Assembly: GCA_964346405.1 (NCBI GenBank)
Contig: CAYFVL010000001.1
Coordinates: 4,640 to 61,692 of the forward strand
From: an uncultured Fibrobacterota bacterium
GTDB taxonomy: Bacteria > Fibrobacterota > Chitinivibrionia > Chitinivibrionales > CAYFVL01
Reading direction: 5' to 3'
DNA: 57,053 nt
In this document: positions 1 through 46,876 of the stretch, piece after piece
Numbering within the stretch: position 1 is the stretch's first letter
Layout: the number at the start of each line of letters is the position of its first letter
Notes under the pieces: generated by a model
Database searches by the model: none
What the model saw: only the letters and a program-made list of their open reading frames with translations
What the model was told of the DNA's origin: nothing
Position numbers and translations under genes: made by a program

Positions 1-428
1 AAACCTGAGTACGAGTACGAATGTTCCACCTCGGTAAAACCACCTCTTAATCAGCAAAGCGGTAATCGTACTCAGTGAACCCGCAAAGCGGGTGAACGGT
101 ACTCAGCAGAGCGAAGCGATGCGGTACTCGGAAATCGGAGTTCTTCGTTTCCGCGGGGCCATTCGAGGCTCGAGTACGAGTACCGGTCTCCTTCGCTTCG
201 CTACGGAAACCTGAGTACGAGTACGAATGTTCCACCTCGGTAAAACCACCTCTTAATCAGCGAAGCGGTAATCGTACTCAGTGAATCCGCATAGCGGGTG
301 AACGGTACTCAGCCCCAGTGGGGCGGTACTCGAGAATCGAAGGGTTTCGCGTGTGCCGGATTTTCGAGGTTCGAGTATGAGTACCGGTCTCCTTCGCTTC
401 GCCGCGAAAACCTGAGTACGAGTACGAA
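1..428. repeat. Tandem repeat with a ~201-206 bp unit: copies start at 1, 207 and 408 (third copy only ~21 nt). It runs off the window start.
   Basis: AAACCTGAGTACGAGTACGAATGTTCCACCTCGGTAAAACCACCTCTTAATCAG recurs at 1 and 207, and its first ~21 nt recur at 408. The unit flanks are near-identical and the middle (~110-170 of each unit) has diverged. Each unit carries GAGTACGAGTAC twice and GTACTC three times, which are inverted sub-repeats. The period is not consistently a multiple of 3. Confidence 0.9.
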
Positions 429-7596: not shown

Positions 7597-9987
7597 ATGA
7601 GAGTTACTTTAAAAATAGTGTGTCTGGTGTGCTTTGGTATTACCTTGAGGGCAACGGCCGACGGTCTTCCGGGAGAATACCTTCTTACTCAGCGTTGGCG
7701 CGATTTGTATTCGGGACGTTCGGCCGCAAGTAATCCGGCATTTATCACCGAAGACAATTTCGTGAATGTCAGGACTACCTTTTCTCCCGTCCAGTTGACG
7801 GACGACCCTTCCGGCGATTTTCGGCTTTGGGAGGTAGGAGCGACAATCCCGATCGGTCTGTATCAGACCGCCGGACTGAGCTGGCTCGCTCAGGACGGCG
7901 GAGACATACCGGGTTACGACTTTGCCGTTGACGGTGCTCTAGAGCGGAACTCGTCAAGCATTCCTTCCCAGGAGCACTTTTTCCTGTTCAGCTACGCGAT
8001 AAATCCGTGGCGCAGATTGTCGCTCGGCGCCAACCTCAACATTGCGTATCAGAACCTTTTCGGTGATGCCTACGCCGGGCTGGGCCTTGACCTCGGAGCA
8101 AGTTACCGACTGCTCAACCATCCCCTGTTCGGCAATCATCTCTTAGGTCTCATGCTCCAGAACGCGATTACGCCCCAGACATCGGAGGGCGGCGAAAATC
8201 TTTTCGGCGACTTTTTCAAAAACTTTGCATTCTGGCGGGGAGGCGGCGAAAACCGCTATGCGGCAAACCTTCGTACCTCCTGGATTGGTTCGTTTCTCGA
8301 GGATCAGCTCGAGGGCGGAATCGATATGGATATCAAAGACATCTTCTCTCAAACCGATGAGTTCGCACGGACAATCTCCGCCGACGCCGAAGGATCCGGG
8401 GTAACTCGTCTCGAGGAAGGTACCAAGAAGATCGAATTCGATATGAATTTTCGGGTCGGGGGATGGCCGCTTAGGCGAATCGCCGCGGGATGGTTCCAGT
8501 GGGGAACCGACTATTGGGGCCTTTCGGCCGGGATCAACATTCCCATGGTCAACAGTGGTCGAGACCTGATGATTATGTACCAGTATATAAACCTTTTCGA
8601 GGAAGAGTTCACTCGAAACCACACGTGGTATTTTCGCGGAGAGTTTGGAAATCATCGTGAAGAAATCTATGCCCGTCGAATGGCTCGTCTGGCAGACGTA
8701 TTCCCCAATTCTCTTTACGAAAAGGGTATGCGTCTTTATTACCAGGGCAAGTACTGGGATGCGTATTTCGTGTTCGGGCGACTTGTTGCGCAGTATCCGG
8801 ATTTTTTCAAGAATGACTGGGTATCATACTATCGCGGTGCATCACTCGAGGCCATGGATATGCAGGAACAGGCTATTCGCGCCTATCAGGGCACAATCGG
8901 CGATTACCCGCGCAGCAAGGCGGTTAAGCACGCGGAACTGGGAATCATGCGCGTCGCCTATCTGCAGAACGACGACAACATCGTGGAACGTCAGTACGAG
9001 ACTCTCGATACCGATGAAACCCCGGACTCTCTTCGGAACCATGCTCATTACCTGATAGGCGAAAGTTTCATGAATAATGAAAACTACCACGCCGCCCGCA
9101 CCGCCTTCGAGCGCATACCTCCGGAACATCCGGATTACATTTTCGCCCAGCATTCACTTGCGGTGGCGTTCGTCCATGTTCCATCCCTGGAACAAGCGGC
9201 TCTGGCACTACAACGGTGCCTTCAGGTTCCAACGGAAACCGAGGCTCAGAAGGAAATATCAAACCGTTCGGCGCTTCTTCTCGGCTTACTTTACTATGAA
9301 CAGCAAGCGTTGTCGCAGGCTGTCAGTGCACTTCGGCTCGTGCCACAAGGAACGTACCATTACGAGGAAGCCCTCCTGGGTATGGGCTGGACAGCACTCA
9401 AAGCCCGTCAATGGAACGATTGTATTTCGGCCGGACGTGAACTGGCTGCACGTGCCGAATATGAGGAATTGCGCGCCGACGGACTTCTCTTGCAGGGATA
9501 TGCCTACCTGGTCCAGAAGGACCACCTCAACGCCGCGCGTGTTTTCGACCAGGCGGTGGACATTGCCGAAAAGCTCGATGCGCCGTCGGTGGACTCTCTG
9601 GTTGCTCGCAGGAGGCAGTATTCCCGCGACCGCGAACAGTATCGTCTTCTTGCCGGTCGTGCAAAGGAGCTGTCTCTCATGAATCCAAATTCACAAATCG
9701 CGAAAACGACCGACAGCCTTCACAAAATGCAGGAGCAACTGGAATCCAGAATGGATGAGCACAAGGACTTCATAGACAACATACAGCGGGAAATGTTCTT
9801 CTCCAGGAATATCGCGACTATCCGGGCTGATATCCAATACGCTCAGGCGGTAATTCAGAAAATCGTCAACCGTTCACAAGAGATGCGCGCTACCGACGAT
9901 GCCCGTGAGGAACAGAAAGATATCGACGAAAAGATTCGGGATCTGAAGCGGGATTTGGAGAAACTGGAAAAGGAAGAGCAGGACTAA
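7597..9987 (+). CDS. Fusion of an N-terminal outer-membrane beta-barrel-like domain (PorV/PorQ/UPF0164-like), TPR repeats and a C-terminal coiled coil
   Basis: I moved the start to Met25 (MRVTLKIVCLVCFGITLRATA, a signal peptide). The SNPAF motif and alternating beta-strand pattern (GLGLDLGASYRL) mark the N-terminal ~330 aa. TPR-like helical repeats follow (YYQGKYWDAYFVFGRLVAQYPD...). The tail is charged and coiled-coil-like (EEQKDIDEKIRDLKRDLEKLEKEEQD). Confidence 0.65.
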   Translation: MRVTLKIVCLVCFGITLRATADGLPGEYLLTQRWRDLYSGRSAASNPAFITEDNFVNVRTTFSPVQLTDDPSGDFRLWEVGATIPIGLYQTAGLSWLAQDGGDIPGYDFAVDGALERNSSSIPSQEHFFLFSYAINPWRRLSLGANLNIAYQNLFGDAYAGLGLDLGASYRLLNHPLFGNHLLGLMLQNAITPQTSEGGENLFGDFFKNFAFWRGGGENRYAANLRTSWIGSFLEDQLEGGIDMDIKDIFSQTDEFARTISADAEGSGVTRLEEGTKKIEFDMNFRVGGWPLRRIAAGWFQWGTDYWGLSAGINIPMVNSGRDLMIMYQYINLFEEEFTRNHTWYFRGEFGNHREEIYARRMARLADVFPNSLYEKGMRLYYQGKYWDAYFVFGRLVAQYPDFFKNDWVSYYRGASLEAMDMQEQAIRAYQGTIGDYPRSKAVKHAELGIMRVAYLQNDDNIVERQYETLDTDETPDSLRNHAHYLIGESFMNNENYHAARTAFERIPPEHPDYIFAQHSLAVAFVHVPSLEQAALALQRCLQVPTETEAQKEISNRSALLLGLLYYEQQALSQAVSALRLVPQGTYHYEEALLGMGWTALKARQWNDCISAGRELAARAEYEELRADGLLLQGYAYLVQKDHLNAARVFDQAVDIAEKLDAPSVDSLVARRRQYSRDREQYRLLAGRAKELSLMNPNSQIAKTTDSLHKMQEQLESRMDEHKDFIDNIQREMFFSRNIATIRADIQYAQAVIQKIVNRSQEMRATDDAREEQKDIDEKIRDLKRDLEKLEKEEQD

Positions 9988-10073
9988 CCCAAGTTTCGCA
10001 ATCAACTCACGGCATTCTGCGTAAGCCGGCGCGCGATTCATTGTAGAAAAATGCTCAAGGTAAACTTGGGTTA
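9985..10073 (+). repeat. Interspersed stop-codon-abutting repeat, copy a (full length, hairpin with perfect 12-bp terminal arms)
   Basis: TAACCCAAGTTT (9985-9996) is the exact reverse complement of AAACTTGGGTTA (10062-10073). The core TAACCCAAGTTTCGCAATCAACTCACGGCATTCTGCGTAAGC is shared with copies at 40466, 38302, 53660, 18708 and 18980. Its TAA is the stop codon of CDS 7597..9987. Confidence 0.85.
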
Positions 10074-10209
10074 GGAGTCGTCACGAAATAGCCTCTCTAT
10101 TCTCGCTTGATCCCGCCGAGGCGAGACCGGCGAACGAAAGGGTTTCCGGACGGACACAGATTGACTGCCGCCGCCGAAACGGCCTATTGGAATCGAAGCG
10201 TCGGCGCTA

Positions 10210-11073
10210 TTAACCCCGGGATATTTCCTCGGAAAGGAATTCGTCGAACGCATCAGTCCAAAGCGGCATCCCGTTGATACCGAGTTTCTTGAGATTTGCG
10301 TTCTCAAGTACCGCAAATGGAGGTCGAGGTGCCGGACGAGGGAATTCGTCAGTGGTGCACGGTTGCACGTCCACCGATATGCCGGCCGAATCTATAATCC
10401 GTTTGGCGAAATCAAACCACGAGCAGATTCCTTCGGAAGTACAATGATACAGGCCGTACTGTGCATGATCCACGGTATTGAAGATCTGTCGACAGACATC
10501 ACGCGCGTAGGTAGGTGTTCCCCATTGGTCGGCTACGACCTTCACCACTCCTCCTTCGGAGGCTTTATTCACAGCAATCTTGCGTATAGTTTTGACGAAG
10601 TTGTTTCCCTGGTGCCCGTACAGCCAGGCGATCCGGAATATGTAATGGCGTTCCCAGAGATTCCTTAGATTCTCTTCACCCGCCAGTTTTGATTTTCCAT
10701 ACACAGACAGAGGATTGGGAGTATCATCCTCGAGATAAGCGATTCCCTTATTCCCGTCAAAAACATAGTCGGTACCGATATGGACTATTGTTGCGCCGGA
10801 ACCTTTAGCCGCCCGGGCTAGATTCGCCGGTCCTTCGCCGTTAAGGGCGTACGCAATACCCTCATTGCTCTCACAGTCGTCGACTGCGGTATACGCTGCG
10901 CAGTTCACAACAAGGTCCGGCCTTACCGAATTCAGGCATTCGCGTGGACTCTCGATATTACCGATATCGATTTCGGGGAAGTCAATCGCCAGTGTTTCAT
11001 GCCCAAACACTCTGGAGACCTCGACCATTTCGGAGCCAAGCTGACCCCCGGCGCCAATCACGAGTACTTTCAT
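10210..11073 (-). CDS. rfbD: dTDP-4-dehydrorhamnose reductase
   Basis: I moved the start to Met24 (MKVLVIGAGGQLG, a Rossmann motif), which has GGAGG just upstream. Family-typical blocks are present: YHCTSEGICSWFDFAKRI and RPAPRPPFAVLEN. Confidence 0.85.
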   Translation of the reverse strand: MKVLVIGAGGQLGSEMVEVSRVFGHETLAIDFPEIDIGNIESPRECLNSVRPDLVVNCAAYTAVDDCESNEGIAYALNGEGPANLARAAKGSGATIVHIGTDYVFDGNKGIAYLEDDTPNPLSVYGKSKLAGEENLRNLWERHYIFRIAWLYGHQGNNFVKTIRKIAVNKASEGGVVKVVADQWGTPTYARDVCRQIFNTVDHAQYGLYHCTSEGICSWFDFAKRIIDSAGISVDVQPCTTDEFPRPAPRPPFAVLENANLKKLGINGMPLWTDAFDEFLSEEISRG

Positions 11074-18307: not shown

Positions 18308-18707
18308 ACATGAAAATAATTATAGATACAGTACTTACGACAATCAAGCGAAGAAATTCCTGCTGTTTGGGGCAACTGAAGACTCATAATTCACCACATT
18401 TTCGACGATGCGCGGAACCCGGAACAGACACTGATTTCCAGGGAACGGCTGCACCCTCCGATTTCCTCTCGTGACAAAGCCGATCAAAAATCCTTATACC
18501 AAGCTTGCCGGCGGTCGGTTTCGACTCGCAATATCTTCGCTGCGGAAAACAAGATATTGATTTGGTTGCACATAGATCGTCCGAAAACCCGATTCCCAAC
18601 TCGCTCACCTGATAATATAGATTCGGTCAAAGGAGTGTCAACTACTTTACCAAAACACCGACAAACTCTTCCCGACGCTCGAATGCCCCGACTGTGTTAC
18701 TCATTCC

Positions 18708-18753
18708 TTAACCCGACTTCGACAATCGACTCACGGTGTTCCGCGAATGAGGC
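18708..18753 (+). repeat. Interspersed stop-triplet repeat, copy e (5' half), followed by a hairpin and T5
   Basis: The copy reads TTAACCCGACTTCGACAATCGACTCACGGTGTTCCGCGAATGAGGC. Downstream, AGGCC (18750-54) pairs with GGCCT (18770-74), and a T-run extends to 18778. Confidence 0.75.
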
Positions 18754-18979
18754 CGATCGTGCCGAATATGGCCTTTTTGCACACAAAGCTTCCACCGCCG
18801 AGGTTCCGGAGCTATTTTCTACCTAAGCTGGCCGATTCTGAGCGAGGAAACCCTTCTCGGCCATGGAGTTTTCACTACCGTTCAGCTACTTGAGGTATTC
18901 CGGCTTCTCAGCCGAACCTGATTGTAGCCATTTGTGTGGTGATGCGATTTTCCGCGAGTGAATCGCTCAACTTAGGTTC

Positions 18980-19008
18980 TAGCCCAAGTTTCTGCACTCA
19001 ATTGTGGG
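18980..19008 (+). repeat. Degenerate copy f of the interspersed repeat (AAGTTT subfamily)
   Basis: TAGCCCAAGTTTCTGCACTCAATTGTGGG resembles TAGCCCCAAGTTTCGCAATCAATTCACGG at 40466. It lies 80 nt upstream of the ribD start. Confidence 0.5.
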
Positions 19009-19088
19009 ATAAAGGGTTCCAGGCTCTTTTATGCACCCGACAGGGAACAAAACGTACAGATGCCTCCCATACAAGCGACGGAAACACA

Positions 19089-23036: not shown

Positions 23037-26000
23037 ATGGATGATCGTCACAAGAAAACGAATGCCGTCCTGGCGTTGGTTGTATTTGCCGTCACGTTCG
23101 TTACATTTCTGACGACCGTTGCGCCCACGGTGTCATTCTGGGACTGTGGAGAATACATCGGGGCGGCTCATTCACTCGGGATCCCTCATCCTCCCGGAAA
23201 CCCTTTGTATGTTCTTGTCGGACGTTTTTTCTCGATAATGCTGCCATTTTTCACTCAGGTGGCCTATCGAGTGAACCTCATATCGGTTCTCAGCGGAGCG
23301 TTTACCGCAGTGTTCATGTACCTGATCGTGGTACGGGTCATGATATCCTGGATGGGTATTCCTCAGAAAACCTGGCAGCGCCTTACGATCTACACCGCGG
23401 GACTTGTCGGAGCGTTCTTCGCGGTATTCAACTATACATTCTGGTTCAGCGCCGTTGAAGCATCGGTGTATATACCCAGTATGTTGTTCATATCGATATG
23501 CACCTGGCTGGCCATCATCTGGTCTCAGAGCACCTCACCGGACCGTGATCGTCTGCTGGTCCTGATTGCGTATCTTGTATTTCTGAGTATAGGAATACAC
23601 ATGATGGGCATGATCGCAATGGCACCGATCGGGCTTTTCATTTTCCTCAAAGATCGGGAAAAGCTCAAAGACTGGCGACTCTGGTTTATTGGTTTCATGA
23701 TGGCATCCGTGATCTGGCAACCAAGCATGTTCCTTGCAATCGGGCCGATGTTATTGCTCATGACGGTCGTGTATGGATTCTTACGATTCAAGGATTCCCG
23801 CGTTATCAATCCGGTCATTTTCGGGTTTCTTTTCGTCTGGCAGGTCATGGTCGCATATAACAAGTTTTCGCTCGACGGAGGCTTTGTCGAGGCGGTATTC
23901 CCATTCGCGGCGCTCTTCGGGTTTACTCTGCTCGCTATGTTCCTGGACGAGAATGCGATTGCTCTGCAACTGAAGAAGAAGTGGCGTTTCATGTTCTGGC
24001 TGGTCGCTTTTGCTTCACTCGGATACTCTGTTCACGCCTATATCCCGATCCGATCGGCACTCGATCCCATAATCGACGAGAATAATCCGGTTATCACCTG
24101 GGAAGACGGGAAAGTCAATGCGGATAATTTCCGCTACTTCCTCGAGCGCAAACAGTACGGCTCTGAATCCATGATTTCCCGCATGTTCTGGCGACGCGGA
24201 TCCTGGCAGAAACAGCTTGGAATCGATGACCACATGGGGTATGGAGGATTCCACATTACCCAGTTCTTCCATTTTGGCGATCACATCGGAGCCGATCGTA
24301 CCACTCCACTTTTCGAATCGTACGGAGGAGCGGGAGGCTTTCTGAGGCTTCTGGTATACCTGGTCCCGACCTTCTTCATGATATACGGGTGGGCCTATCT
24401 TTATAAACGAAACAAGAACCTGGCCATATTCCTGATCGTGCTATTCGTGCTCTCCTCTATCGGACTGGTTCTCTACATGAATTTCGCCGACGGGTATCAT
24501 GCGGAAAAACGCGACTACATGGCCTGGGTTCGAAGCGGAAGACAGGGAACGATGCCAACCGTGCATCGCGAAGTGCGTATTCGAGACTACTTCTTTACCG
24601 CGGGATTCATGTTTTTCGGGATGTGGATCGGTCTTGCGGCGGGCAGTCTGCTCCATCTCCTGTTCACGAATTCCAACCGTTTCCTCAGAACGCAGATGGC
24701 TCCGATTGCCGTCGTGCTGTTTCTTGTCTCTCCCGCACTTCCCTATGTACATAACTATGCGGAAAATAATCGTACCAATGACTGGATACCGTATGATTAT
24801 GCATACAATCTTCTGATGTCGTGTGAAAAGGATGGAATAATCTTCACCAATGGAGATAACGACACTTTTCCGCTATGGTTCCTGCAAGAAGCCGAGGGTA
24901 TTCGGAAAGACGTTCGAATTGTAAACCTGAGCCTGCTTAACACCACCTGGTATATAAAGCAGCTCAAGGACCTTGAACCCAAGGTGCCGATATCGTTTTC
25001 TCATAAGGAAATCGAAGCCCTTACGCATGAACTGAATCCGCTTGAGAAGCCACTCCCCTACACCATGCCCAAAGCAGGTATTCGAGTAGTTCTCCCCGGA
25101 CGTCGGGAGAAACAGGCTCTGCGGGTTCAGGACAAAATGGTGGTGAACATCGTCGATTCGAATAAATGGCGCAAACCCATCTATTTTGCGGTAACAGTTT
25201 CCAACGACAACATGATGGGACTCCAGCCTTATCTCCAGATGGAAGGTCTTGTCTACCGCGTACTGACTGAAAAAGTTCCCTCCGACGATCGGATAGATCT
25301 CGACAGGACGCTTTATCTTATCGACGATGTTTATCAGTTCAGGGGCCTGGGTAAAGGAAATGTCATCATGAGCGAAACGGCCCAGAAGCTCATGTCGAAT
25401 TATGCGGCAAGCTTCATTCAGGTTGCGCTCACGCTCGAGCAACCGCTCCTGGACAAGAAATCCAGAATCGAATCTCTGGAAAAAGCGCTCGTCGATACAA
25501 CGGCCGATGCCGGAGCAGGCGAGGTTTCCCGGGAACTAACGGAACTTCGGGCCGGGTATCAGGATACTCTGGATATCGTTATCAACAAACTCGAGCAGGT
25601 GATCGCTCTTATGCCGTGGGATTGGCGTCCACGTACTCTGCTTCACCGAACTCTTACTCAGCATGATCGGTATGAACTTGCTCTTGAAAAAATCAGGCAA
25701 GCGAGAATGGTCGAACCGGACAATCCGGATTACATGAAAATGGAAGCCCAGATTCTGGATGAATTAGGCAGAAGTGCCGAGGCGAACGATCTGCTGCGCA
25801 ACATTGCAAGGAGTGATCAAGATCCTTTTAATGCGTATGCTCTGCTAATGCGAAATTATCAGGAACAGGGCATGTACGACAGCGCAGTTGCCGTTATGGA
25901 AGAGTTCCAGAAGGTAAGTCCGGGGGATCGAAGAGCCACGGCAATGATTTCGGAATTGCGCCGCTTACAAAAAGAATCCGGGGATGCGGAAACTGAAGAT

Positions 26001-26054
26001 ACGGCAGAACCCGTGTCTTCGAAACTCTCTCCGTCCCCTGCCGTAAAGGGGTAA
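23037..26054 (+). CDS. DUF2723-family polytopic membrane protein (glycosyltransferase-like) with C-terminal TPR repeats
   Basis: VSFWDCGEYIGAAHSLGIPHPPGNPLYVLVGR is the hallmark DUF2723 N-terminal block. Many TM helices follow, and the last ~250 aa are TPR-like. Confidence 0.75.
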   Translation: MDDRHKKTNAVLALVVFAVTFVTFLTTVAPTVSFWDCGEYIGAAHSLGIPHPPGNPLYVLVGRFFSIMLPFFTQVAYRVNLISVLSGAFTAVFMYLIVVRVMISWMGIPQKTWQRLTIYTAGLVGAFFAVFNYTFWFSAVEASVYIPSMLFISICTWLAIIWSQSTSPDRDRLLVLIAYLVFLSIGIHMMGMIAMAPIGLFIFLKDREKLKDWRLWFIGFMMASVIWQPSMFLAIGPMLLLMTVVYGFLRFKDSRVINPVIFGFLFVWQVMVAYNKFSLDGGFVEAVFPFAALFGFTLLAMFLDENAIALQLKKKWRFMFWLVAFASLGYSVHAYIPIRSALDPIIDENNPVITWEDGKVNADNFRYFLERKQYGSESMISRMFWRRGSWQKQLGIDDHMGYGGFHITQFFHFGDHIGADRTTPLFESYGGAGGFLRLLVYLVPTFFMIYGWAYLYKRNKNLAIFLIVLFVLSSIGLVLYMNFADGYHAEKRDYMAWVRSGRQGTMPTVHREVRIRDYFFTAGFMFFGMWIGLAAGSLLHLLFTNSNRFLRTQMAPIAVVLFLVSPALPYVHNYAENNRTNDWIPYDYAYNLLMSCEKDGIIFTNGDNDTFPLWFLQEAEGIRKDVRIVNLSLLNTTWYIKQLKDLEPKVPISFSHKEIEALTHELNPLEKPLPYTMPKAGIRVVLPGRREKQALRVQDKMVVNIVDSNKWRKPIYFAVTVSNDNMMGLQPYLQMEGLVYRVLTEKVPSDDRIDLDRTLYLIDDVYQFRGLGKGNVIMSETAQKLMSNYAASFIQVALTLEQPLLDKKSRIESLEKALVDTTADAGAGEVSRELTELRAGYQDTLDIVINKLEQVIALMPWDWRPRTLLHRTLTQHDRYELALEKIRQARMVEPDNPDYMKMEAQILDELGRSAEANDLLRNIARSDQDPFNAYALLMRNYQEQGMYDSAVAVMEEFQKVSPGDRRATAMISELRRLQKESGDAETEDTAEPVSSKLSPSPAVKG

Positions 26055-26084
26055 TCCGCGACTCAAATCGGCCTCGCACTTTCG

Positions 26085-36750: not shown

Positions 36751-38174
36751 TTCTTCTCCTCGTACAAAGGTATCCCCAGAAGTGCCTTCAGTTGTGCGAC
36801 CGCCAGCACTTTCTGAGCTTCCAGTTGCATGTGCGTCTGTTCGGCATCGCGAACTTCGCGTTCTATTTCCAAAAGCTCGGTAACATCTATAAACCCGTCG
36901 GCGTAATCCCGCTCGGCCTCCTCCAATGCTCCCCGTGCGGCCTCGAGCTGAAGCGATAAGGCTTCGATATTGCTATTGAGCGTCGTTATGCCGGTCCTCG
37001 TTTCCTCGATCTCCCTGGCGTTTTCTTCCTTTATCTGCTTGGCCTCACGTTGCGCTTTCTCGAAGCCGTACCTGGCTTTGTTGTGCTCCGCACGCGTCCT
37101 GCGGCCGTCAAAAATATTCCACGTGAGTTGAAGACCGAGGGCATAGTTGTAGTACTCAGGATCGAGAACCGACTCCAGATTCGGGTTTGCATAATCCTCT
37201 GTCGACGATCCATTTTGCCCCCCCCCGGTTGCAGAAGGCATTGATTCCAAAAACTCATCATAACTAAACCAATCCTTCTTATGATGCAGAGAAATCATTC
37301 GCTGCACCTGACTTCCGGCCGTGGCAAACAAACCTATCGTGGGGAAAAGTTTTGCGCGGCGATAGTTTATGTTGAGTTCCTGCAGTGCAACCTCGTGCTC
37401 CTTCAGCCTGTACTCCATGCTTTGACTAGCCGAAGTATCTGAAGGAATATTGGATGCCCAGCCATTTTGGTCTTGTACGAGTCGCACGGAATCGTCTATC
37501 GTGGTTTCAGAAACATCGGACAATCGCTCGAACGCAATCGTTTTGGCTGCGCGTGCCTGTGAGAGATTTGCCTCTTTGCGAAGAGCCAGAGCCTTCACTC
37601 GCAAAAGATCTCGACGAGCTACACCATCCATCTCGAATGCGCGTTCGACCCGGGCGAGGGTCCTGTCGGCGTATTGCGCGGCCCTCTCGGCCGACCCAAC
37701 GGATTTCTGCGCAAGGAGTGCGCCGTTGAACGATGAAATGAGCTTCAAGTAATATGCGTCTTTCTTCAGGCGAAGCATATCGTCAAGCATGTCACTTCGA
37801 CGATGAGCGATTTTCAACGCATTGAACGCACTCCCAAACGTGAATATCGGCTGGTATACCGACAAACTCCAGTTGGCCGATTGGGCATTGGCCCGGGTAA
37901 TACCAGGCGGAATGGCGGTGAACGCCTGTCCCTTCAGAGCCTGTGAACCAAGCCCCGCGCCCGCTTCCAGCGAAACCATCGGCAACGCCTCCGACCGGTA
38001 GAACTTGATATCCTCCCTCCCGATCGCATCATCGAGTTCGGCTATGGCGATATCGTCGGAACAACCGTTGCACTTTTCGAACAACTCTTCGAGCGTAAGG
38101 GTAGTTTCCGAAAGCGATTTGGTGCAAAGCGCCGCGGTAAATAGAAATGCCGCTATTGAAATTGACCGTTTCAT
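36747..38174 (-). CDS. TolC-family outer membrane efflux protein
   Basis: Signal peptide and a duplicated OEP repeat pattern (475 aa). It is the first gene of the efflux operon. Confidence 0.8.
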   Translation of the reverse strand: MKRSISIAAFLFTAALCTKSLSETTLTLEELFEKCNGCSDDIAIAELDDAIGREDIKFYRSEALPMVSLEAGAGLGSQALKGQAFTAIPPGITRANAQSANWSLSVYQPIFTFGSAFNALKIAHRRSDMLDDMLRLKKDAYYLKLISSFNGALLAQKSVGSAERAAQYADRTLARVERAFEMDGVARRDLLRVKALALRKEANLSQARAAKTIAFERLSDVSETTIDDSVRLVQDQNGWASNIPSDTSASQSMEYRLKEHEVALQELNINYRRAKLFPTIGLFATAGSQVQRMISLHHKKDWFSYDEFLESMPSATGGGQNGSSTEDYANPNLESVLDPEYYNYALGLQLTWNIFDGRRTRAEHNKARYGFEKAQREAKQIKEENAREIEETRTGITTLNSNIEALSLQLEAARGALEEAERDYADGFIDVTELLEIEREVRDAEQTHMQLEAQKVLAVAQLKALLGIPLYEEKK

Positions 38175-38301
38175 TTCTCTACGTTCCCATTAGGGTAAGT
38201 TGTTGCCCCGACTTTTTATCCACCGTCGAGACATCGATCTCCTCGACCGCGGATGGGCCGGCTAGTAAATCAATTGAGTCGGATAATATCGTTTTCTCGC
38301 C

Positions 38302-38376
38302 TGACCCGACTTCGACAATCGACTCATGGCATTCTGCATAAGCTGTTGCTCGCTCTCGACTGTCGAACTCGGGCTA
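38302..38376 (+). repeat. Interspersed stop-codon-abutting repeat, copy c (full length, 12/13-bp terminal arms)
   Basis: The copy reads TGACCCGACTTCGACAATCGACTCATGGCATTCTGCATAAGCTG...TGTCGAACTCGGGCTA. CCCGACTTCGACA pairs with TGTCGAACTCGGG with one mismatch. The terminal CTA is the TAG stop codon of the minus-strand TetR gene. Confidence 0.85.
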
Positions 38377-39039
38377 AGAAGACAAGTCCGGATTGAATTC
38401 CAGTTTCATGCCTTCACAAAGAAATGTCATTATGTTGCCGACCTCTTCGTCGATATTGCCGAGTTCCCCGGCAATTTTCCACTCGAACATCGTTCCCCGA
38501 ATCAACGATCCCAGATAGCGTGCCAGAACAGTATCCGAAAGAGAACTCTTGATCGTTCCAGCAGCCCGCGCCCGTGCGATTATTCGCATCATAGCCGCCT
38601 GCATCATTCCATAGAGATTCTTGAACTGCTCGGTACGATCGGCATGACGTCGTTCTACCTCCTCTATCGATCTATTACCGTGTGCGGCTGCTCGAAAATG
38701 CGATATCGCCAGCATAATCCCGAATTGCTCACCGAACAGAGTGAAAATGGAGTACAGAATCGATCGGATACTTTCCCCCGCATCAGCCCCGCCACGTTCG
38801 GTCTGCTCAACTTTCTTGAGCAGACGCTCATACTCGCGGATAGCGAGACTTAGAAAAATCTCTTCTTTGTCCTGGTAATAGTTGTAGAGCGCCGCCTTCG
38901 AGAATCCCGCGGATGCCGCTATATCCTCGAGCCTTGTCTCGTGATAGCCTCGGGCGCTGAACACCTGCCGTGCCGCATCGAGTATGATATTTGTTTTTGC
39001 GTCACGTACAGCCTGATCCCTTGCCGACTTAGCATTCAT
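38374..39039 (-). CDS. TetR/AcrR-family transcriptional regulator
   Basis: The N-terminal HTH is AARQVFSARGYHETRLEDIAASAGFSKAALYNYYQDKEEIF. It lies upstream of the efflux operon on the same strand. Confidence 0.85.
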   Translation of the reverse strand: MNAKSARDQAVRDAKTNIILDAARQVFSARGYHETRLEDIAASAGFSKAALYNYYQDKEEIFLSLAIREYERLLKKVEQTERGGADAGESIRSILYSIFTLFGEQFGIMLAISHFRAAAHGNRSIEEVERRHADRTEQFKNLYGMMQAAMMRIIARARAAGTIKSSLSDTVLARYLGSLIRGTMFEWKIAGELGNIDEEVGNIMTFLCEGMKLEFNPDLSS

Positions 39040-39066
39040 AAGAGTGACTCCAGAGTCAATTTTTTG

Positions 39067-39086
39067 TATATACGGTTCAATATACT
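39067..39086. promoter_or_regulatory. Candidate operator palindrome upstream of the TetR gene
   Basis: GTATAT-N8-ATATAC has perfect 6-bp arms. It lies 28 nt upstream of the TetR start in an AT-rich stretch. Confidence 0.3.
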
Positions 39087-39154
39087 GATTATTTTGTCGG
39101 AAGGCAAGATCAAATGGATTTCTAACAAAAAAGAATTAGTTAAGCGCGATAATT

Positions 39155-39691
39155 GTGGAAACCAATCCGAGTATGTATTTTATGGCCATGAATATGTTTC
39201 CGAATAACTTTAGCGATCCTCGCCTGCAAGAGATGTTCGAAAGAACCGAGATTTTGCGCAAACCAATCAGCGGTATTGTTTCCGGATACCACGAGCTACC
39301 GTATGTGCTGATTGCTCCTCGTGGCGAAGAACCTGATGGTAGCGTGAGGATAGACGGCAAAATCAGTGTCTCCCCTAAATTCGTAATATCTCCCCAGGCC
39401 CTGGGTGATGCCTTTGGGGATGTCTTCGATCCGGAAACTTTCGATAACGATCTGCAGGGCAGACTGTTTTCTTTTGGCGGTCACCGCAAGCAACTCAAGG
39501 TGGCAAGCGAATACTTTCAGAAGACTGAAAGCGAAAAGCCGCCACAAGAGCTGATCGACAGAACTCTTGATGAGCTTCTTCAGCAGGAAGACATACGGAC
39601 CGGCCTGATTCTGGCTCCTAAACTGGAATATTATCCGGTCTCGATCGACCGCTTCATTACGGAAATCACCGACCGGGAATTTCGTGTCTAG
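39155..39691 (+). CDS. Hypothetical soluble protein (178 aa)
   Basis: Clean ORF with ordinary composition and no TM helix or signal peptide. I recognised no family. The exact Met is uncertain because there are several near the N-terminus. Confidence 0.55.
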   Translation: METNPSMYFMAMNMFPNNFSDPRLQEMFERTEILRKPISGIVSGYHELPYVLIAPRGEEPDGSVRIDGKISVSPKFVISPQALGDAFGDVFDPETFDNDLQGRLFSFGGHRKQLKVASEYFQKTESEKPPQELIDRTLDELLQQEDIRTGLILAPKLEYYPVSIDRFITEITDREFRV

Positions 39692-39781
39692 CCGAATCGG
39701 TGTTTTAGCTCTTCCGGCTTTTGCCGAGTTGTGGTATACTGTTTGTACGACTGTTTCCTGGCTCCAACACCGGAGGAATGC

Positions 39782-40009
39782 ATGTACGAACATCCACAAT
39801 ACCTCACTCCCGACGGATACCGCCGTGACGGGGCTAAAAAAAACACTCGAAAGAACCGAAAAGCTTCGATACATAAGTGGCCGGACAGTACTGTTTCACC
39901 GAAAGCGCGGCAACTGCAGGCCCAAAAAGGAACGCCTCGACGAGGAATCAGCGAAGATGCGGCGAAACTTATTGCCAATACTATAAAGATTATGCTCAAC
40001 AGTAAGTGA
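39782..40009 (+). CDS. Small, highly basic hypothetical protein (75 aa)
   Basis: The ATG at 39782 sits 4 nt after GGAGGA (39772-77). The sequence is Lys/Arg-rich (GAKKNTRKNRKASIHKW...). It ends 6 nt before the next ORF. Confidence 0.5.
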   Translation: MYEHPQYLTPDGYRRDGAKKNTRKNRKASIHKWPDSTVSPKARQLQAQKGTPRRGISEDAAKLIANTIKIMLNSK

Positions 40010-40015
40010 GAGTAA

Positions 40016-40468
40016 ATGTGGTGGTTGGGATTTTATCGGTTTTATGCATCGATTGCGGCGGGAACTGTCGTCTATCTCTTCACCACCGCAGGAGTGTGGT
40101 GGGCCGTCGGAATCGCAGTTGTGTTTCGTGCGATATGGTTTGGGGCGGATCGTGCATGGGAGCGATACCGAGTCGAACGGGATTTTAAGGAACACCTGCA
40201 GGATTTCAAGAACGGACTGGGCCCCTACGGAATTCGTCTCGCCAACAAGGCCGAGCGCGACTACCACACACGAAAATCGCTGGCTGAAGTATTCACCAGG
40301 GATCCCGGAAAACTCGCCAGGTCGGTCGAACAACTTGAGGTTATGGACACGCTTTTTCAGGCCGGCATGCGTCCCGATGGGGATCAATACCTTCTTCATG
40401 ACCTGAAACTGAAGTATGGCCGCACAAGGCTTGGGGGGCTGAAACAATCGAACCCGAATAAACCTTAG
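40016..40468 (+). CDS. Hypothetical membrane protein (2 predicted TM helices plus a cytoplasmic tail)
   Basis: The two hydrophobic helices are FYRFYASIAAGTVVYLFTTAGVWWAVGIAVVFRAIWF. Its TAG stop is the first triplet of repeat copy b. Confidence 0.6.
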   Translation: MWWLGFYRFYASIAAGTVVYLFTTAGVWWAVGIAVVFRAIWFGADRAWERYRVERDFKEHLQDFKNGLGPYGIRLANKAERDYHTRKSLAEVFTRDPGKLARSVEQLEVMDTLFQAGMRPDGDQYLLHDLKLKYGRTRLGGLKQSNPNKP

Positions 40469-40511
40469 CCCCAAGTTTCGCAATCAATTCACGGCATTCT
40501 GCGTAAGCTGG
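40466..40511 (+). repeat. Interspersed stop-codon-abutting repeat, copy b (5' part only)
   Basis: TAGCCCCAAGTTTCGCAATCAATTCACGGCATTCTGCGTAAGCTGG. It occupies the whole gap between two convergent stop codons (40466-68 and 40512-14). Confidence 0.85.
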
Positions 40512-42497
40512 TTAGAGATCGGCTTCGCCGAACCAGCCTTTTGCCTGCGCCACCTCGAAAAATATCTCAACCACCGCCGGATCGAACTGGCGCCCCTGCT
40601 CGCCTCGAAGGCGGCGCACCGCTTCGCCTTTGCCGAGACTGTTCCGGTACGGACGGTTAGAGGTCATAGCCTCGAATGCATCGGCTACATGCAAAATTCG
40701 TGCGCCCAGCGGAATATCCTCACCTTCGAGCCCTTCGGGGTATCCGCTTCCGTCGTAGTTCTCGTGGTGGTACAGAATAAGCGAATAGAGTTCACGAAGG
40801 AACGGGACGTCCCTCACGATATTTGCCCCGAGAGTCGTATGTGTTTTCATGATACCGTTGAATTCCTCATAGGTGAGAGGGCCAGGTTTGTTGAGAATAT
40901 ACCCGGGAATTCCGATCTTTCCGATATCATGCAAAAGACCCGCATCCCGCACAATCCCGATCCATCGACGGTCGTCGCTGAATTCACCGGCAAGTGCCTC
41001 GGCGATGTTCATCACGTTTTCCGAATGCCCGTGAGTATAGGTATCTTTCGCATCCACCGCAATCGCCAGGGCCTTTATCGTACGGATATAATTCTCTTTC
41101 ATGTCGTTGTACAGATTTGCATTGGCCAATGCAATTCGTGTCTGGCTGATAAGAGAAGAGAGAAGCGAGAGCTTTTCCTCCCGATTATCCAGATCCCGGG
41201 AGGCACCGCAATAGAGAACACCGAAATTGAAATCTTCCCAGACTATGGGAACGATATGACTGAAAGCCGGTGGAGTGTCGATGCTTCCGTCGACGCCGTC
41301 CTCTTCGAGCAGTTTTCGATGGGTCACCCGTTTCGCCAGGACTTTGCTCTTTCCGGATTTGTTGTACCGATCGATGACTTCACCGGATACCTCGGACAGT
41401 GTCTCACGACTTAGCGGTGCACGAGACCAGTAAAGAAATTCATGAAACCGTTTGCGGACCAGGAGAAACCCAAGGGTATCTATGTCGAAGTAGCGTCGTA
41501 TAGTTGAAAAGAGGCTCTTTATCACATCCTTCTTCTCGATCAAACCCATGAGCTGTTCGGAATAGGTGCTGATAAGCGAAAGCTCGTCGAGCTTGCGATG
41601 AATCGATGTGTACATGCCGGCGTTCTTGAAAGCGACACCAATCTGCGTAGCGAGTACATTCAGAGTATTCAGATCGGAGACCGTGAAGGGGGTATCCCCG
41701 GATGTGCGGTAAAGGGCGACAACTCCAAGAACATCGTTGTAAGCGGATAGCGGAGCCAACAGTTGAAATGGTGTCTCGAGATTTTCTTCGGGTGGGACCA
41801 CTCCCTCGGGATAACATGTCCCACCGTTCAGCATGAGCGGGCGTCCGTTATGCACAACCCATTCGGCAGCCCCGGAGTGCAGAAATTTTGAAACGCCGTC
41901 CGGATCACCGGACATAAGACTCTTCCCGGGAGGAAGAAATTCGAGTTTCGATTCGGCATTTCCGCGCGCCAGACGAATGCATCCGGATTCCGATTTCAAA
42001 ACTCGAAGGCAGGAGTTCAGAGCGATCGTGGGAAGCTCGTCGAGATCATGCGTTGTCGTAAGCTTGGTTGCTATATCGTGGAGAGATGCAAGACTCGCAA
42101 GGGCACTGTTTTCACGGGACAATCGGGAAGACTCAAGCGCTCGACAGAGCTTGTAGTATAATATTTCCAGTTGAAAAGGCTTAACGATGTAATCGAAAGC
42201 GCCATTCCGGACGGCCTCTAATGCAGCGTCTTGCTCGGGATGCCCCGTTATCAGCAGAACCGGAGACCGGGACTCGTCTTCTCTGATTCTTTTTAGTAGT
42301 TCCAATCCACCCATGGTCGGCATTCGCACATCGGCGATAACAGCCACGGGCTCGAATCTTCCGATTAGGTCCAGGGCTTCCTCAGTAGTGCTAACCGCAA
42401 GTGTTTCGTACCCTTTGAGTCGAAGAAAATCGGAAAGGGCGGCACCGAGGACTTGATCGTTCTCGGCGATTATTACCAGTTCTTTTGTTTGCTTCAT
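40512..42497 (-). CDS. Response regulator receiver + GAF-like region + HD-GYP domain protein (RpfG-type c-di-GMP phosphodiesterase)
   Basis: The REC domain is VIIAENDQ...VIADVRMPTMGGLELL...LLITGH. The HD-GYP motifs are HGHSENV, LLHDIGKIGIP and HHENYDGSGYPEGL. Confidence 0.85.
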   Translation of the reverse strand: MKQTKELVIIAENDQVLGAALSDFLRLKGYETLAVSTTEEALDLIGRFEPVAVIADVRMPTMGGLELLKRIREDESRSPVLLITGHPEQDAALEAVRNGAFDYIVKPFQLEILYYKLCRALESSRLSRENSALASLASLHDIATKLTTTHDLDELPTIALNSCLRVLKSESGCIRLARGNAESKLEFLPPGKSLMSGDPDGVSKFLHSGAAEWVVHNGRPLMLNGGTCYPEGVVPPEENLETPFQLLAPLSAYNDVLGVVALYRTSGDTPFTVSDLNTLNVLATQIGVAFKNAGMYTSIHRKLDELSLISTYSEQLMGLIEKKDVIKSLFSTIRRYFDIDTLGFLLVRKRFHEFLYWSRAPLSRETLSEVSGEVIDRYNKSGKSKVLAKRVTHRKLLEEDGVDGSIDTPPAFSHIVPIVWEDFNFGVLYCGASRDLDNREEKLSLLSSLISQTRIALANANLYNDMKENYIRTIKALAIAVDAKDTYTHGHSENVMNIAEALAGEFSDDRRWIGIVRDAGLLHDIGKIGIPGYILNKPGPLTYEEFNGIMKTHTTLGANIVRDVPFLRELYSLILYHHENYDGSGYPEGLEGEDIPLGARILHVADAFEAMTSNRPYRNSLGKGEAVRRLRGEQGRQFDPAVVEIFFEVAQAKGWFGEADL

Positions 42498-42504
42498 GCG
42501 GGAA

Positions 42505-43563
42505 TCACCATTCGGTAGCCATGCTCACCGTATAGCTTCCTCCCAGATCCGTTACAATGTAGGAGACATTGAAATTCATGATTTTTTCAAACAGAGAAAC
42601 GCCGCCCCCGAATGAAGCGTACCCCGAGTGATATCCCAGACGCAGGGCAACAACATCGAATATGGTATACTCAAAACCGACATGCCCAAACCGGACGGCA
42701 CTCAATACGCCCTGATGTTCCGTCCAGGTCTCGGAATCGTAATCACTTCGAAAAGATTTGCTTAAACGCGCGCCGTCGTTACCCAACAGATCGGCAGTAC
42801 TAGCCACGGCAAGGACTCGACCATAGACGTAGGGGATCTCTTTGCGATAGCCTACCCCGATTCTCAGCCGTGGGGCCTGATACTCGTCGTATTTTCCCCA
42901 GTAGTTGTAAGTCGCAAGCCCATCGAAATTTATTCCGGCACGCACCCCGGACAACATGTGATCGAAAACAGCCCCGGCATCGATTCCAAGGCCATATCCA
43001 TGGATATTATTAATCTGGCTTTTCCTGGAATCCCAACCGGGGAGCCGAATACGCAATCCGTTCGCGGCAACTCCCATAGATATGTTAATATGCGGTGTCA
43101 CCACAAAACGACGGGAGTAGGATGCACCCAGCCGCAATTCGGAGGCCGATGTTACAATCACGTCTTCTTCGCTGTAATCCTGCGGATACCCGTCCGCATC
43201 GGCAGCCATATGCGCGTTGAATGGGATATCGGGATTATGAAGGTAGCCGAAAAACAACCCAATTCCGTGCAGATCATCGATTCGAGTAGTATATGAACCA
43301 CCGGAGATGGAGAAAAGGTTCCCGTGATAGCCCGCATAGGTTGCTTCGAGCCGAGCACCCGGTTCCAACGCGGAAACCGCCGGATTACTCATCGGAGATG
43401 CATCGCGTGAATAAACAAGGTCGGAAAGAGCCATCGACTGAGCGCGGGGAAAAACAAAAAGATCGCGATTCACGTCGCTATACTGCGACTTTTCGGCGCG
43501 GCCTGTTGATACCAGGGTTAGTCCGGCTATCAGAATCGCACGCATTCCATATATTTTTCGCAT
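42505..43563 (-). CDS. Outer-membrane beta-barrel protein (PorQ/PorV/UPF0164-like)
   Basis: Signal peptide (MRAILIAGLTLVSTGRA), an SNPAV motif, alternating beta-strand pattern and a C-terminal aromatic residue (...MATEW). Its stop is 8 nt from the HD-GYP gene start. Confidence 0.55.
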   Translation of the reverse strand: MRKIYGMRAILIAGLTLVSTGRAEKSQYSDVNRDLFVFPRAQSMALSDLVYSRDASPMSNPAVSALEPGARLEATYAGYHGNLFSISGGSYTTRIDDLHGIGLFFGYLHNPDIPFNAHMAADADGYPQDYSEEDVIVTSASELRLGASYSRRFVVTPHINISMGVAANGLRIRLPGWDSRKSQINNIHGYGLGIDAGAVFDHMLSGVRAGINFDGLATYNYWGKYDEYQAPRLRIGVGYRKEIPYVYGRVLAVASTADLLGNDGARLSKSFRSDYDSETWTEHQGVLSAVRFGHVGFEYTIFDVVALRLGYHSGYASFGGGVSLFEKIMNFNVSYIVTDLGGSYTVSMATEW

Positions 43564-43820
43564 AGCTGAAACCGATCATTTACCGGGGTCGGAATTAGTG
43601 AACAAATATACTCATTTTCAGGCCCGTATTGCAGAAATTTCCGCAGCATACGATCTAGGGAACCACGCTTGTTAAATACGTTTTACTACGGTTTTCTATT
43701 GGCATCGTCGGACATCGTTCAGGCACTGAAGAAGGGGGAATCTCGCGGTGCCGCGCACTGCGTCCCGCCGGACATCAATCTGCCAACGGACACCATTCTC
43801 AGCCGATTTGCGGCATAAAC

Positions 43821-43849
43821 TTGAAAATGGAGTTACCCGGTGGTATTTT
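43821..43849 (+). promoter_or_regulatory. Candidate sigma70-type promoter for tRNA-Val
   Basis: TTGAAA (43821-26), a 17-nt spacer, then TATTTT (43844-49). It ends 11 nt before the tRNA 5' end. Confidence 0.4.
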
Positions 43850-43860
43850 CTATTGCACTT

Positions 43861-43934
43861 GGGCGCATGGCTCAGTTGGTTAGAGCGCCGCGTTCACATC
43901 GCGGAGATCGCTGGTTCGAGTCCAGCTGCGCCCA
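43861..43934 (+). tRNA. tRNA-Val (anticodon CAC)
   Basis: The cloverleaf folds by hand. The acceptor stem is GGGCGCA/TGCGCCC and the D arm is GCTC-AGTTGGTTA-GAGC. The anticodon arm is CCGCG-TTCACAT-CGCGG and the T arm is GCTGG-TTCGAGT-CCAGC. The discriminator is A and CCA is not encoded. Confidence 0.9.
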
Positions 43935-43978
43935 TTTAACCTCCTACGGTATCCCCCTCCGGACACCGCGAGAACTCT

Positions 43979-45424
43979 ATGACAAACAGTCGGTATCTGC
44001 GCTTTGCGTTGACAGTTTTTTCCTTTTTCCTGATTCCATTGGCCGTTTCAGCCCAAAACGAGTGTTTTGCCCTCACGGCTCCTGGTTCCGGCACAAAAGT
44101 TACAACGGATGCATGCACGCTGTCGGTGAAGGCGTGTGAGGATATTCGCTCAATTACGTTTTCAGCATTCATTCCAGTCTCGGAGGACTCCGTCGACACC
44201 CTCCAACTGGGAACAATCTCACGCCCACCATTCAGGATGGTTTGGGACGTTGGTGACCTTTCAAACTATCTTTTCTCCGGTGTGGTCGTCTCCGCGCAGG
44301 CAACATACCGAAACGGCATTTCGGAAGTGATCCGTCACGAAGGAATCCTTTTGGCTCATAATCCGATCTCCCGTCCGCGGTATCCGCTTACCTTTGCCCG
44401 GTCGGAGGATATCGAGTCGGTGCCGGAGATAGTCGTCGGAGGAACCTCGTCAACTCCGAATTACACGGCCAAAGCATACTGGAACAACGAAGGTGTGGTT
44501 TTCGAGCTCCAGGTCAACGACCCGTTCTACTATCGTGATCTGCCCGACGACAAATATGCTGAACTCGGGGTGGAAATCCTGCTGAGCCGCGGTCTGAATG
44601 AAAAACCATACCCGGACTCCGGCACATTATGGTTTGTCGTTCCGCTGAACGTGAGACCATACCGTATTCTTGCCCAACCGGTAATGAATGGCGGGCAGTT
44701 TGAGATCAAACGCATCCGAAAATCAGTCGATTACCCATTCATTATAAAAACGGAAGACTTCAAGGGCTTCGGAATACGTTTCACCGTACCGCTCCAGGCC
44801 TTCGGCCCGGAACTGCCGGACACGCTTGGGATGAATATCATAGCTCATGTCCTCAATAGTCGAAATGAGGTCGAGAGTCTCTCGTGGGTAGAAGCCGGCG
44901 CACACAACATGCACAGTCCACAGGTCTATGGCATAGTCCCTGTGACGGAGCGTGCCCCAGTCGCGGATACAATGTTTCTCTGGATAATCGCCTTTGGGGC
45001 AGGGCTGCTGCTTGGTGTTCTGGGAGTCGGACTCAAAAAGATCACTTCGCCCGCGCCGGCGGGTTCCCCTCGGCGGTCACAATCCGTGCAAAAACAGGAT
45101 GACCTTTTCGAAAAAAGCAAGAGAGTCATGGAATCCGAAGTCACGAACGGCAGTTTTTCGGTCCGTGATGCGGCCTCAACGCTCTCGGTTTCACCGCATG
45201 CTCTCAATACCGCGGTTCGACGAGCGTCCGGCGAGAATTTCCAGAATTTTCTGATGCGTTCACGTGTGGAAATAGCCAAAGAGCGACTTCGTTCCTCCCA
45301 TTCCAGCGAAACCGCCATAGCGTCATCCTGCGGATTTCGATCCGTCGACGAAATGGAAAAACAGTTCAGAAAGTTCTGCCGAATCACCCCGTACCGGTTC
45401 AGAGAAGAAAACCAGGTTGCCTGA
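43979..45424 (+). CDS. Membrane-anchored AraC-family regulator with an N-terminal extracytoplasmic (CBM9/DOMON-like) domain
   Basis: Signal peptide (FALTVFSFFLIPLAVSAQ) and an ectodomain of about 320 aa (AKAYWNNEGVVFELQVNDPFYY). A TM helix follows (MFLWIIAFGAGLLLGVLGVGL). The C-terminus is an AraC HTH (VRDAASTLSVSPHALNTAVRRASGENFQNFLMRSRVEIAKERL...CGFRSVDEMEKQFRKFCRITPYRFR). Confidence 0.7.
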   Translation: MTNSRYLRFALTVFSFFLIPLAVSAQNECFALTAPGSGTKVTTDACTLSVKACEDIRSITFSAFIPVSEDSVDTLQLGTISRPPFRMVWDVGDLSNYLFSGVVVSAQATYRNGISEVIRHEGILLAHNPISRPRYPLTFARSEDIESVPEIVVGGTSSTPNYTAKAYWNNEGVVFELQVNDPFYYRDLPDDKYAELGVEILLSRGLNEKPYPDSGTLWFVVPLNVRPYRILAQPVMNGGQFEIKRIRKSVDYPFIIKTEDFKGFGIRFTVPLQAFGPELPDTLGMNIIAHVLNSRNEVESLSWVEAGAHNMHSPQVYGIVPVTERAPVADTMFLWIIAFGAGLLLGVLGVGLKKITSPAPAGSPRRSQSVQKQDDLFEKSKRVMESEVTNGSFSVRDAASTLSVSPHALNTAVRRASGENFQNFLMRSRVEIAKERLRSSHSSETAIASSCGFRSVDEMEKQFRKFCRITPYRFREENQVA

Positions 45425-46101: not shown

Positions 46102-46115
46102 AAAGGAGACATACC

Positions 46116-46805: not shown

Positions 46806-46876
46806 GCCACGCGGCTTTCAAGGGTCCGTCGGTGACTTTCAGCCGAAGTGCTCCTTTGTGTCAAACGATTACCTCC

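Follow-up and report, generated by a model that had tools for sequence, protein, structure and literature searches.

We analyzed a short interspersed repeat in a 57,053-nucleotide stretch of DNA (hereafter, the window) from an uncultured Fibrobacterota bacterium (assembly GCA_964346405.1, contig CAYFVL010000001.1, positions 4,640 to 61,692), in which an earlier note had listed seven copies, a to g. All seven were present where the note had placed them. The core pattern proposed for them describes a genuine family, which blastn and a repeat search both recovered, but taken literally it has 0 matches, two of its positions being out of register. A corrected 25-nt consensus, CCCRASTTYSRCAATCRAYTCAYGG, matches the window at 9988, 18712, 38305, 40470 and 53663, always on the plus strand, and gave 0 matches in 100 dinucleotide shuffles. 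Repeat search and blastn also returned the two subfamilies that had been distinguished, CCCAAGTTTCGCA and CCCGACTTCGACA, referred to here as a-type and c-type. A profile search placed two additional plus-strand copies, h and i, just past the window's right end and still on its contig (L002:18134 and L002:19173 in an ENA contig), and an inverted copy, j, with a degenerate neighbor, k, about 4.4 kb to its left; in all, ~11 copies are dispersed over roughly 68 kb. A third, h-type subfamily was seen at L002:18146-18196 and, in a JGI contig, at L062:14561-14611, where CCCAGGTTTCGCAATCAACTCACGG is followed by the hairpin CATACCG...CGGTAT and then by TTTCGACTCC. Copy k adjoins copy j (83% identity over 52 nt). 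The copies in the window, together with two sites occupied in a sister genome, are as follows.

9984-9987, plus strand: CTAA, flanking copy a on the left and holding the TAA that ends the TPR gene 7597-9987; similarity to the sister genome (contigs L070 and L071) ends right after CTAA
9988-10070, plus strand: copy a, an 83-bp full-length a-type element, CCC...GGG, followed by TTAG at 10071-10074
18708-18753, plus strand: copy e, TTAA and the 5' half only, c-type, old, not at a gene end
18979-19008, plus strand: copy f, CTAG and a degenerate 5' arm ~80 nt upstream of ribD, status uncertain (E 0.035)
26055-26075, plus strand: approximate empty site; the sister element lies 13 nt downstream of the point where the orthologue of gene 23037-26054 stops
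38301-38304, plus strand: CTGA, the putative left target duplicate of copy c, one transition from CTAA; it stops no gene
38305-38373, plus strand: copy c, a 69-bp full-length c-type element with inverted repeats pairing at 16 of 19 positions (-29.1 kcal/mol, z -5.3)
38374-38377, minus strand: CTAA (TTAG on the minus strand), the putative right target duplicate of copy c, holding the TAG stop of the minus-strand TetR gene 38374-39039
39688-39691, plus strand: empty target site CTAG, with gene 39173-39691 ending at its TAG; a sister element is inserted exactly there
40465-40515, plus strand: copy b, TTAG, 43 bp comprising the 5' arm and core, then TTAG
53659-53739, plus strand: copy d, TTAA and a c-type element of 77 bp, its 3' arm degenerate and its internal hairpin longer
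56033-56095, plus strand: copy g, a probable degenerate element with 5' arm CCCGGGTTTTCGC and 3' arm TGTCGAACTCGGG (56077-56095), then TCAG

Full copies measure 69-90 bp and remnants 43-59 bp, and none holds an open reading frame beyond spurious overlaps. A full copy runs from CCC to GGG between inverted repeats of ~19 bp (consensus CCCRASTTYSRCARTCRAS). On its 5' side lies a conserved subterminal segment, CAATCRAYTCAYGG, followed by a short variable hairpin that, after a conserved CTCACGG, differs by subfamily: GCAttcTGC in copy a, GTCCC...GGGAC in d, TCCCG...CGGGA in j and ATACCG...CGGTAT in h. The degenerate copies f and g were detected by the arm profile only (E 0.005 for g); a degenerate 5' arm, probably present at 56033, would make copy g a 59-bp remnant. 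Near-identical cores (95-100%) lie within unrelated flanks, and seven contigs from four assemblies (data sets) terminate inside copies, indicating a multi-copy repeat. The window comes from a microbial-mat metagenome, and its sequence was found identical in ENA ERZ922771, JGI 3300012002 and several Logan assemblies. Homologues of its proteins indicate Chitinivibrionales/Chitinispirillaceae, in the Fibrobacterota. Among the matches listed for a reference-genome collection there was one true match, a full-length copy with perfect 13-bp arms and CTAA on both sides, in an uncultured Fibrobacterota metagenome-assembled genome (L001).

The terminal arms of copies a and c had been described as complementary, and their pairing is borne out: it is perfect over 13 bp in copy a, where 9 bp belong to the element and the remainder to its flank, and holds at 12 of 13 positions in copy c. 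Over a longer span, the inverted repeats match at 16 of 19 positions in copy c and in the L001 copy, and at 13 of 19 in copy d. Full copies fold as long hairpins, with z scores of -2.9 (copy a, a 13-bp terminal stem at -26.9 kcal/mol), -5.3 (copy c) and -6.5 (the L001 copy); truncated copies do not. The earlier observation that arms differ between copies yet remain complementary within each copy stands, although it reflects subfamily-specific terminal inverted repeats rather than RNA covariation. Since both ends of a copy belong to the same subfamily, as in transposon ends, such "compensatory" differences are no evidence of selection on RNA.

Filled and empty sites in a sister genome

Protein clusters at 90% identity led to a sister genome (SRR15425354/352 and GCA_964498225.1) that shares 92-94% DNA identity with the window and is separated from it by three polymorphic sites, two of which lie exactly on native stop codons. 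At the site of copy c, the sister contig L066 (~92% identical) is empty and reads GGACTTGTCTTC-TTAG-GCGAGAG, whereas the window reads TTAG, the 69-bp CCC...GGG element, and then TCAG-GCGAGAA between the same flanks; the alignment gap is 73 columns, or 69 bp plus 4 bp. Judged from this alignment, copy c is an insertion with a putative 4-bp TTAG duplication, one duplicate of which later underwent a single transition. In both genomes, TetR natively stops at the TAG within this TTAG. The opposite arrangement occurs at 39688-39691, where the window carries the empty CTAG and the sister has TTAG directly followed by CCCAAGATTCGCAATCAACTCACGGC, exactly on the TAG stop of a gene (39173-39691) that is validated by its substitutions, 28 of 36 being at third codon positions. 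Close to 26055, the sister reads CTAA directly followed by CCCAAGTTTCGCAATCAACTCAC and the window has no copy. Sites e and f are occupied in both genomes by old, rearranged remnants: a diverged orthologous remnant of copy e lies at the same place in sister contig L068, and most of the sequence matching copy f, GTTTCTGCACTCAA, is common to the sister.

More distant relatives lack the element. Contig L061, in which the HD-GYP protein is 90% identical and the neighboring 150-amino-acid protein 74% identical, has none at site b. In the syntenic contig L012 (~69% amino acid identity), nhmmer found no element at d, g, h or i; at d and g, whose flanking genes can be compared directly, its intergenic gaps are smaller by roughly one element (18 versus 104 bp at d and 12 versus 121 bp at g). 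The polymorphism between the sisters and the absence from these distant relatives indicate that the family is mobile, has been active recently and is restricted to this lineage.

Target site and proposed mechanism of spread

The bases next to the element fall into one class. The 5' arms are flanked by CTAA, TTAG, CTGA, TTAA, TTAA and CTAG, and the reverse-complemented 3' arms by CTAA, TTAG and CTGA; with the arms aligned at CCC, all are preceded by Y-T-R-R except one, which has ATAG. A YTAR-class flank was recorded in 11 of the 13 arms listed, and in copy j as well, with CTGA on two arms and ATAG on one. Paired flanks are TTAG/TTAG in copy b, CTAA/CTAA in the L001 copy, and CT(G)A/CTAA in copy c, where the empty site has a single TTAG; three of four pairs agree over all 4 bases if the transition in copy c is allowed for. 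Among the a-type copies, which are 95-100% identical, TA is followed by different bases (A, G, A, A, G, G). Because the bases beside TA vary among near-identical copies, they are taken to derive from the target, which favors a 4-bp duplication over one of TA only. As read from these flanks, the 4-bp YTAR, and not TA by itself, is the most likely duplicated target.

We propose, with a probability of roughly 0.85, that the repeat is a new non-coding MITE family (miniature inverted-repeat transposable elements), with an IS5-like YTAR target duplication, residing in uncultured Chitinivibrionia-like Fibrobacterota from microbial mats. A MITE with a preference for gene ends was among the options that the earlier note had raised, and the filled and empty sites in the sister bear it out, with the suggested TA flank now refined to, most likely, YTAR. 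A transposase encoded elsewhere, inferred to be of the IS5-like DDE type, would move the element into a site of the palindromic YTAR class and duplicate that site, as IS5-type DDE transposases do; the parent element, if there is one, would be bounded by CCCRASTTYSRCA...TGYSRAASTYGGG.

Several observations weigh against this proposal. No transposase was seen in the gene tables for ~68 kb of this genome, and no parent insertion sequence with matching inverted repeats appeared among the matches listed in the genome collection. A first metagenome scan gave no match, although a JGI contig from the same population exists, and a second, which used the a-type inverted repeat, returned 44 loci that were all chance matches, in which similarity was not continued and no YTAR flank was present. 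Viral contigs and PLSDB plasmids likewise gave no match, and a protein flanking the L001 copy, used to extend that locus, had a single homologue, 46% identical. Truncation is asymmetric, with only the 5' half kept in five copies and only the 3' arm in at most one. TGA stands in place of TAR at the 5' end of copy c and at copy g, and a 2-bp TA duplication of the IS630 kind, with a variable terminal base, would fit any single site, so that we regard it as the less likely of the two target models. The L061 counterpart of site b is not a simple empty TTAG: it has an unrelated 57-bp spacer, TGA stops and a gene tail longer by 6 codons, differences that a deletion next to the site, or divergence alone, may have produced. 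The flanks of copy a disagree (CTAA versus TTAG). Synteny with the sister breaks at the left (5') boundary of that element, the only junction that could be placed, and the sister continues with different DNA; together with the discordant flanks, this suggests that copy a is a recombinant between copies. Finally, orientation is uneven, at roughly 9-11 copies against 2, a bias not predicted by symmetric cut-and-paste.

The statement that all long copies lie on the plus strand holds within the window and for copies h and i to its right, and fails for copies j and k, which are inverted ~4.4 kb to its left. All copies from 9.9 kb to 61.5 kb, and both insertions specific to the sister, are in plus orientation. 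GC skew is mostly negative across the window, indicating that the region probably lies in one replichore, and a replication-linked orientation bias is documented for several DDE insertion sequence families, including IS5a in some chromosomes (PMC3971601). The bias is probably real but not unusual.

Stop codons and alternative explanations

Independent gene calls confirm that the triplets leading into copies a, b and d are real stop codons (ending at 9987, 40468 and 53662) and that the TetR and STAS genes stop in 3' arms (at 38374 and 56092). In copy d, the TAA ends the Gate-domain gene 52346-53662, whose 438-amino-acid product matches its homologues in length; in copy g, the minus-strand TGA within TCAG ends the STAS gene 56092-56466. 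A case absent from the earlier note is the HD-GYP gene 40512-42497, which stops in the TTAG to the right of copy b (its TTA is a minus-strand TAA) at the same codon as in L061. Copy b lies between two convergent genes and its flanks supply the stops of both, the left TAG ending a 150-amino-acid gene (40016-40468). The first triplet is indeed always a stop triplet, yet not in every copy the real stop of a gene: the triplets at the 5' end of copy c and at copies e, f, h, i, j and L001 stop no gene, and copies h, i and L001 lie 16-33 nt upstream of start codons. Real stops make up ~8% of stop triplets outside the bodies of coding sequences in a 63.7-kb stretch, against which 5 of 11 arms on the window contig and its 6.6-kb extension fall on real stops (P ~0.001). 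The association with stop codons is genuine, though it does not hold for every copy. An outward promoter in the 5' end of copies h, i and L001 was also considered and rejected, with no acceptable -35/-10 geometry by eye or by scan.

Since YTAR contains TAA or TAG on both strands, the first triplet belongs to the duplicated target and lies outside the element proper; and since the duplication leaves a stop at each end, a gene reading in from either side keeps its stop and the insertion is tolerated. Insertions on stop codons would be coding-neutral and would survive preferentially in a genome that is ~90% coding and ~10% non-coding, whereas other YTAR sites would be mostly coding or regulatory, so that purifying selection would concentrate the surviving copies on stops. 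We infer that selection rather than active targeting causes the enrichment. That the transposase itself prefers stop or gene-boundary contexts as a "safe haven", with the shared orientation of independent insertions in the two genomes arising from coupling to the replication fork, seems to us unlikely. The CTGA flanks, seen twice, hint at a possible target of "Y + stop codon", less strict than YTAR.

The earlier note had also raised the options of a 3'-end stabilizer or terminator and of a small RNA derived from the 3' untranslated region, in which a selected RNA or DNA module at gene 3' ends (a REP/BIME-like stabilizer, a terminator or insulator, or a source of small RNA) would owe its spread and conservation to its function. 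We consider this improbable as the primary nature of the repeat. The strong hairpins of full copies, the real stop codons adjoining 6 of 15 arms, the gap between two convergent genes that copy b exactly fills, and the hairpin of varying sequence 3' of the conserved CTCACGG in copies a, d, h and j are what such a module would lead one to expect. About half of the copies, however, have no 3' arm: it is missing from b, e, h, i and j, which can form no terminal hairpin. Several are upstream or antisense, with copy c antisense to both its neighbors, copies h, i and L001 each close upstream of a start codon, and copy e between divergent genes; a gene 3' end is found at none of these last four. No copy contains a terminator-like or sigma-70-like call, regional counts being at the shuffle background, and none of the terminator-like calls in 37000-56900, likewise no more numerous than in shuffles, overlaps copies b, c, d or g; no U-tract is present, and there is no T-run 3' of copy a or c. 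At the gathering score, Rfam 15 has no family for the repeat, the sole match in the window being a tRNA-Val, and at E up to 10 it returned only chance miRNA-hairpin matches of 13-17 bits against thresholds of 84-95. Presence/absence polymorphism at 92-94% identity points to recent insertion, not conservation, although single copies may have been exapted. The tRNA-Val gene (anticodon CAC, 43860-43935) was called once, by both Rfam and ARAGORN, and is unrelated to the repeat family.

Orientation is one argument for mobilization as single-stranded DNA by a Y1/HUH enzyme (REP/REPIN with RAYT, or an IS200/IS605 type), with insertion 3' of a specific tetranucleotide in the template of the lagging strand: all 7-9 copies found in the window or to its right share one strand whatever the orientation of the genes, as do the two sister insertions, the mostly negative GC skew places the region in probably one replichore, and a conserved class of tetranucleotide precedes the 5' end. 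This explanation we rate as very improbable. True terminal inverted repeats, 13-19 bp long, bound the copies, and the target is duplicated on both sides; to our knowledge IS200/IS605 elements have neither. No GTAG-type REP palindrome is present, the preceding tetranucleotide varies (CTAA, TTAG, TTAA, CTAG, CTGA), copies j and k are inverted just left of the window, and the orientation bias related to replication, as noted above for IS5a, is not peculiar to such enzymes. Integron attC sites, or an attC cluster without an integrase, are still harder to credit, and we give them almost no weight. In attC, the stop of the cassette gene is often located in the inverse core site; copy a, with GACTAAC at its start and GTTAGGA at its end, resembles RYYYAAC...GTTRRRY, and the copies are imperfect palindromes on the 57-141 nt scale in a shared orientation. 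Copies c and L001, in contrast, end GCTAAGA rather than GTTRRRY and start GCCTGAC and GTCTAAA; intervals of 2-20 kb separate the copies, which lie between operons with housekeeping roles (rib, RND efflux, capsule export) encoded on either strand, and none of the gene tables lists an integrase. The empty site of copy c, into which 69 bp and a 4-bp duplication were inserted with no cassette or gene, refutes this candidate.

Neighboring repeats and comparison with known systems

Other repeats and variable regions occur nearby. A second family, R2 (~44 nt, AGGAGTYGTCACGAAATARCCTCTCYATTCTCGCTTGATC, 91% identity), lies directly 3' of copy a at 10069-10112 and ~35 nt 5' of the inverted copy j (L062:14393-14437), so that R2 and the MITE copies form a mosaic of small repeats in intergenic DNA. 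At the TPR gene that ends at copy a, the sister (L070:3740-3838 and L071:2840-3348, compared with window 9925-10420) carries TAG in place of a CAG that lies two codons ahead of the stop in the window (784 versus 796 amino acids); the sister DNA downstream of the shared GGACTAA is unrelated to the R2 and rmlD region of the window. Upstream of the rib operon (ribD, ribE, ribBA, ribH, nusB) is a 781-nt region (18308-19088) with no FMN-riboswitch match at the Rfam gathering threshold, within which a 164-nt segment (~18822-18985) is replaced by 21 nt in the sister. Direct repeats of ~200 nt with 90-97% identity occupy window 1-428, where several assemblies end and the JGI contig L062 reads through. 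Near the other end, TRF reported an array at 56694-56855 (68-nt unit, 2.4 copies, 87% matches), with a hairpin, CCCGGGCCTTCAGCCCGGG, in each unit; it is set within larger direct repeats (region 56615-57053) just upstream of the STAS gene. The ENA contig L002 is 93.6% identical, with an indel, at 56615-57053, indicating that this region varies between assemblies. Contig L003 (L003:1-3410, a Logan contig from ERR1878606) is 99.96% identical to the window right of 45755, a point inside gene 45469-45921, and carries different DNA to the left, including a Ser/Thr kinase gene; this junction, which has no copy of the element, is either a strain rearrangement or a chimeric assembly.

The family is, in our proposal, an undescribed group of MITEs from a poorly studied uncultured lineage. 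With a target duplication that contains a stop, a transposon could sit on the very stop codon of a gene, even where convergent genes have almost no spacer. The family breaks metagenome assemblies and can mislead the annotation of gene ends and of motifs in 3' untranslated regions, and its insertion polymorphisms are markers for strain tracking in mats. It opens no new mechanism; rather, a genuine and statistically supported observation receives an ordinary explanation.

Among known systems, the IS5 group is closest in its target. IS5 duplicates the 4-bp target 5'-YTAR-3' (PMC5009759). The repeat resembles this group in its YTAR-class flanks at copies b, c and L001 and at the empty site, in inverted repeats of a size (~16-20 bp) found there, and in a bias to non-coding DNA; it differs in having no transposase gene and in an inverted repeat that begins CCC(A/G)A. 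Its inverted repeat has no convincing similarity to GGAAGGTGCGAA, which we take to be the IS5 terminus. Other families, such as IS701, also duplicate a YTAR-like 4-mer. With REP/BIME sequences and REPINs mobilized with RAYT, the repeat shares a short structured extragenic form, high copy number, frequent placement just 3' of stops and a mosaic arrangement with other repeats (here R2). Unlike them, it has no 20-40 nt palindrome with a conserved GTAG head, and no short palindrome with a 5' GTAG or GGAG tetranucleotide was found in the copies; it has terminal inverted repeats and a target duplication, and no RAYT gene was seen. Typical MITEs of bacteria have TA in their termini and fold into 5'-3' stem-loops (PMC2229807). 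The Correia/NEMIS elements of Neisseria and the RUP elements of Streptococcus pneumoniae, the latter mobilized by IS630-Spn1, are the nearest parallels in form: like the present family, they are non-coding and ~100 bp long, with terminal inverted repeats, a terminal TA and a target duplication; they lie in intergenic DNA close to genes, and their transcripts fold by 5'-3' pairing (PMC2229807). The present family shares no sequence similarity with them, belongs to a different host phylum and is not A+T-rich, and where they duplicate TA, the variable bases around TA point here to a duplication of 4 bp.

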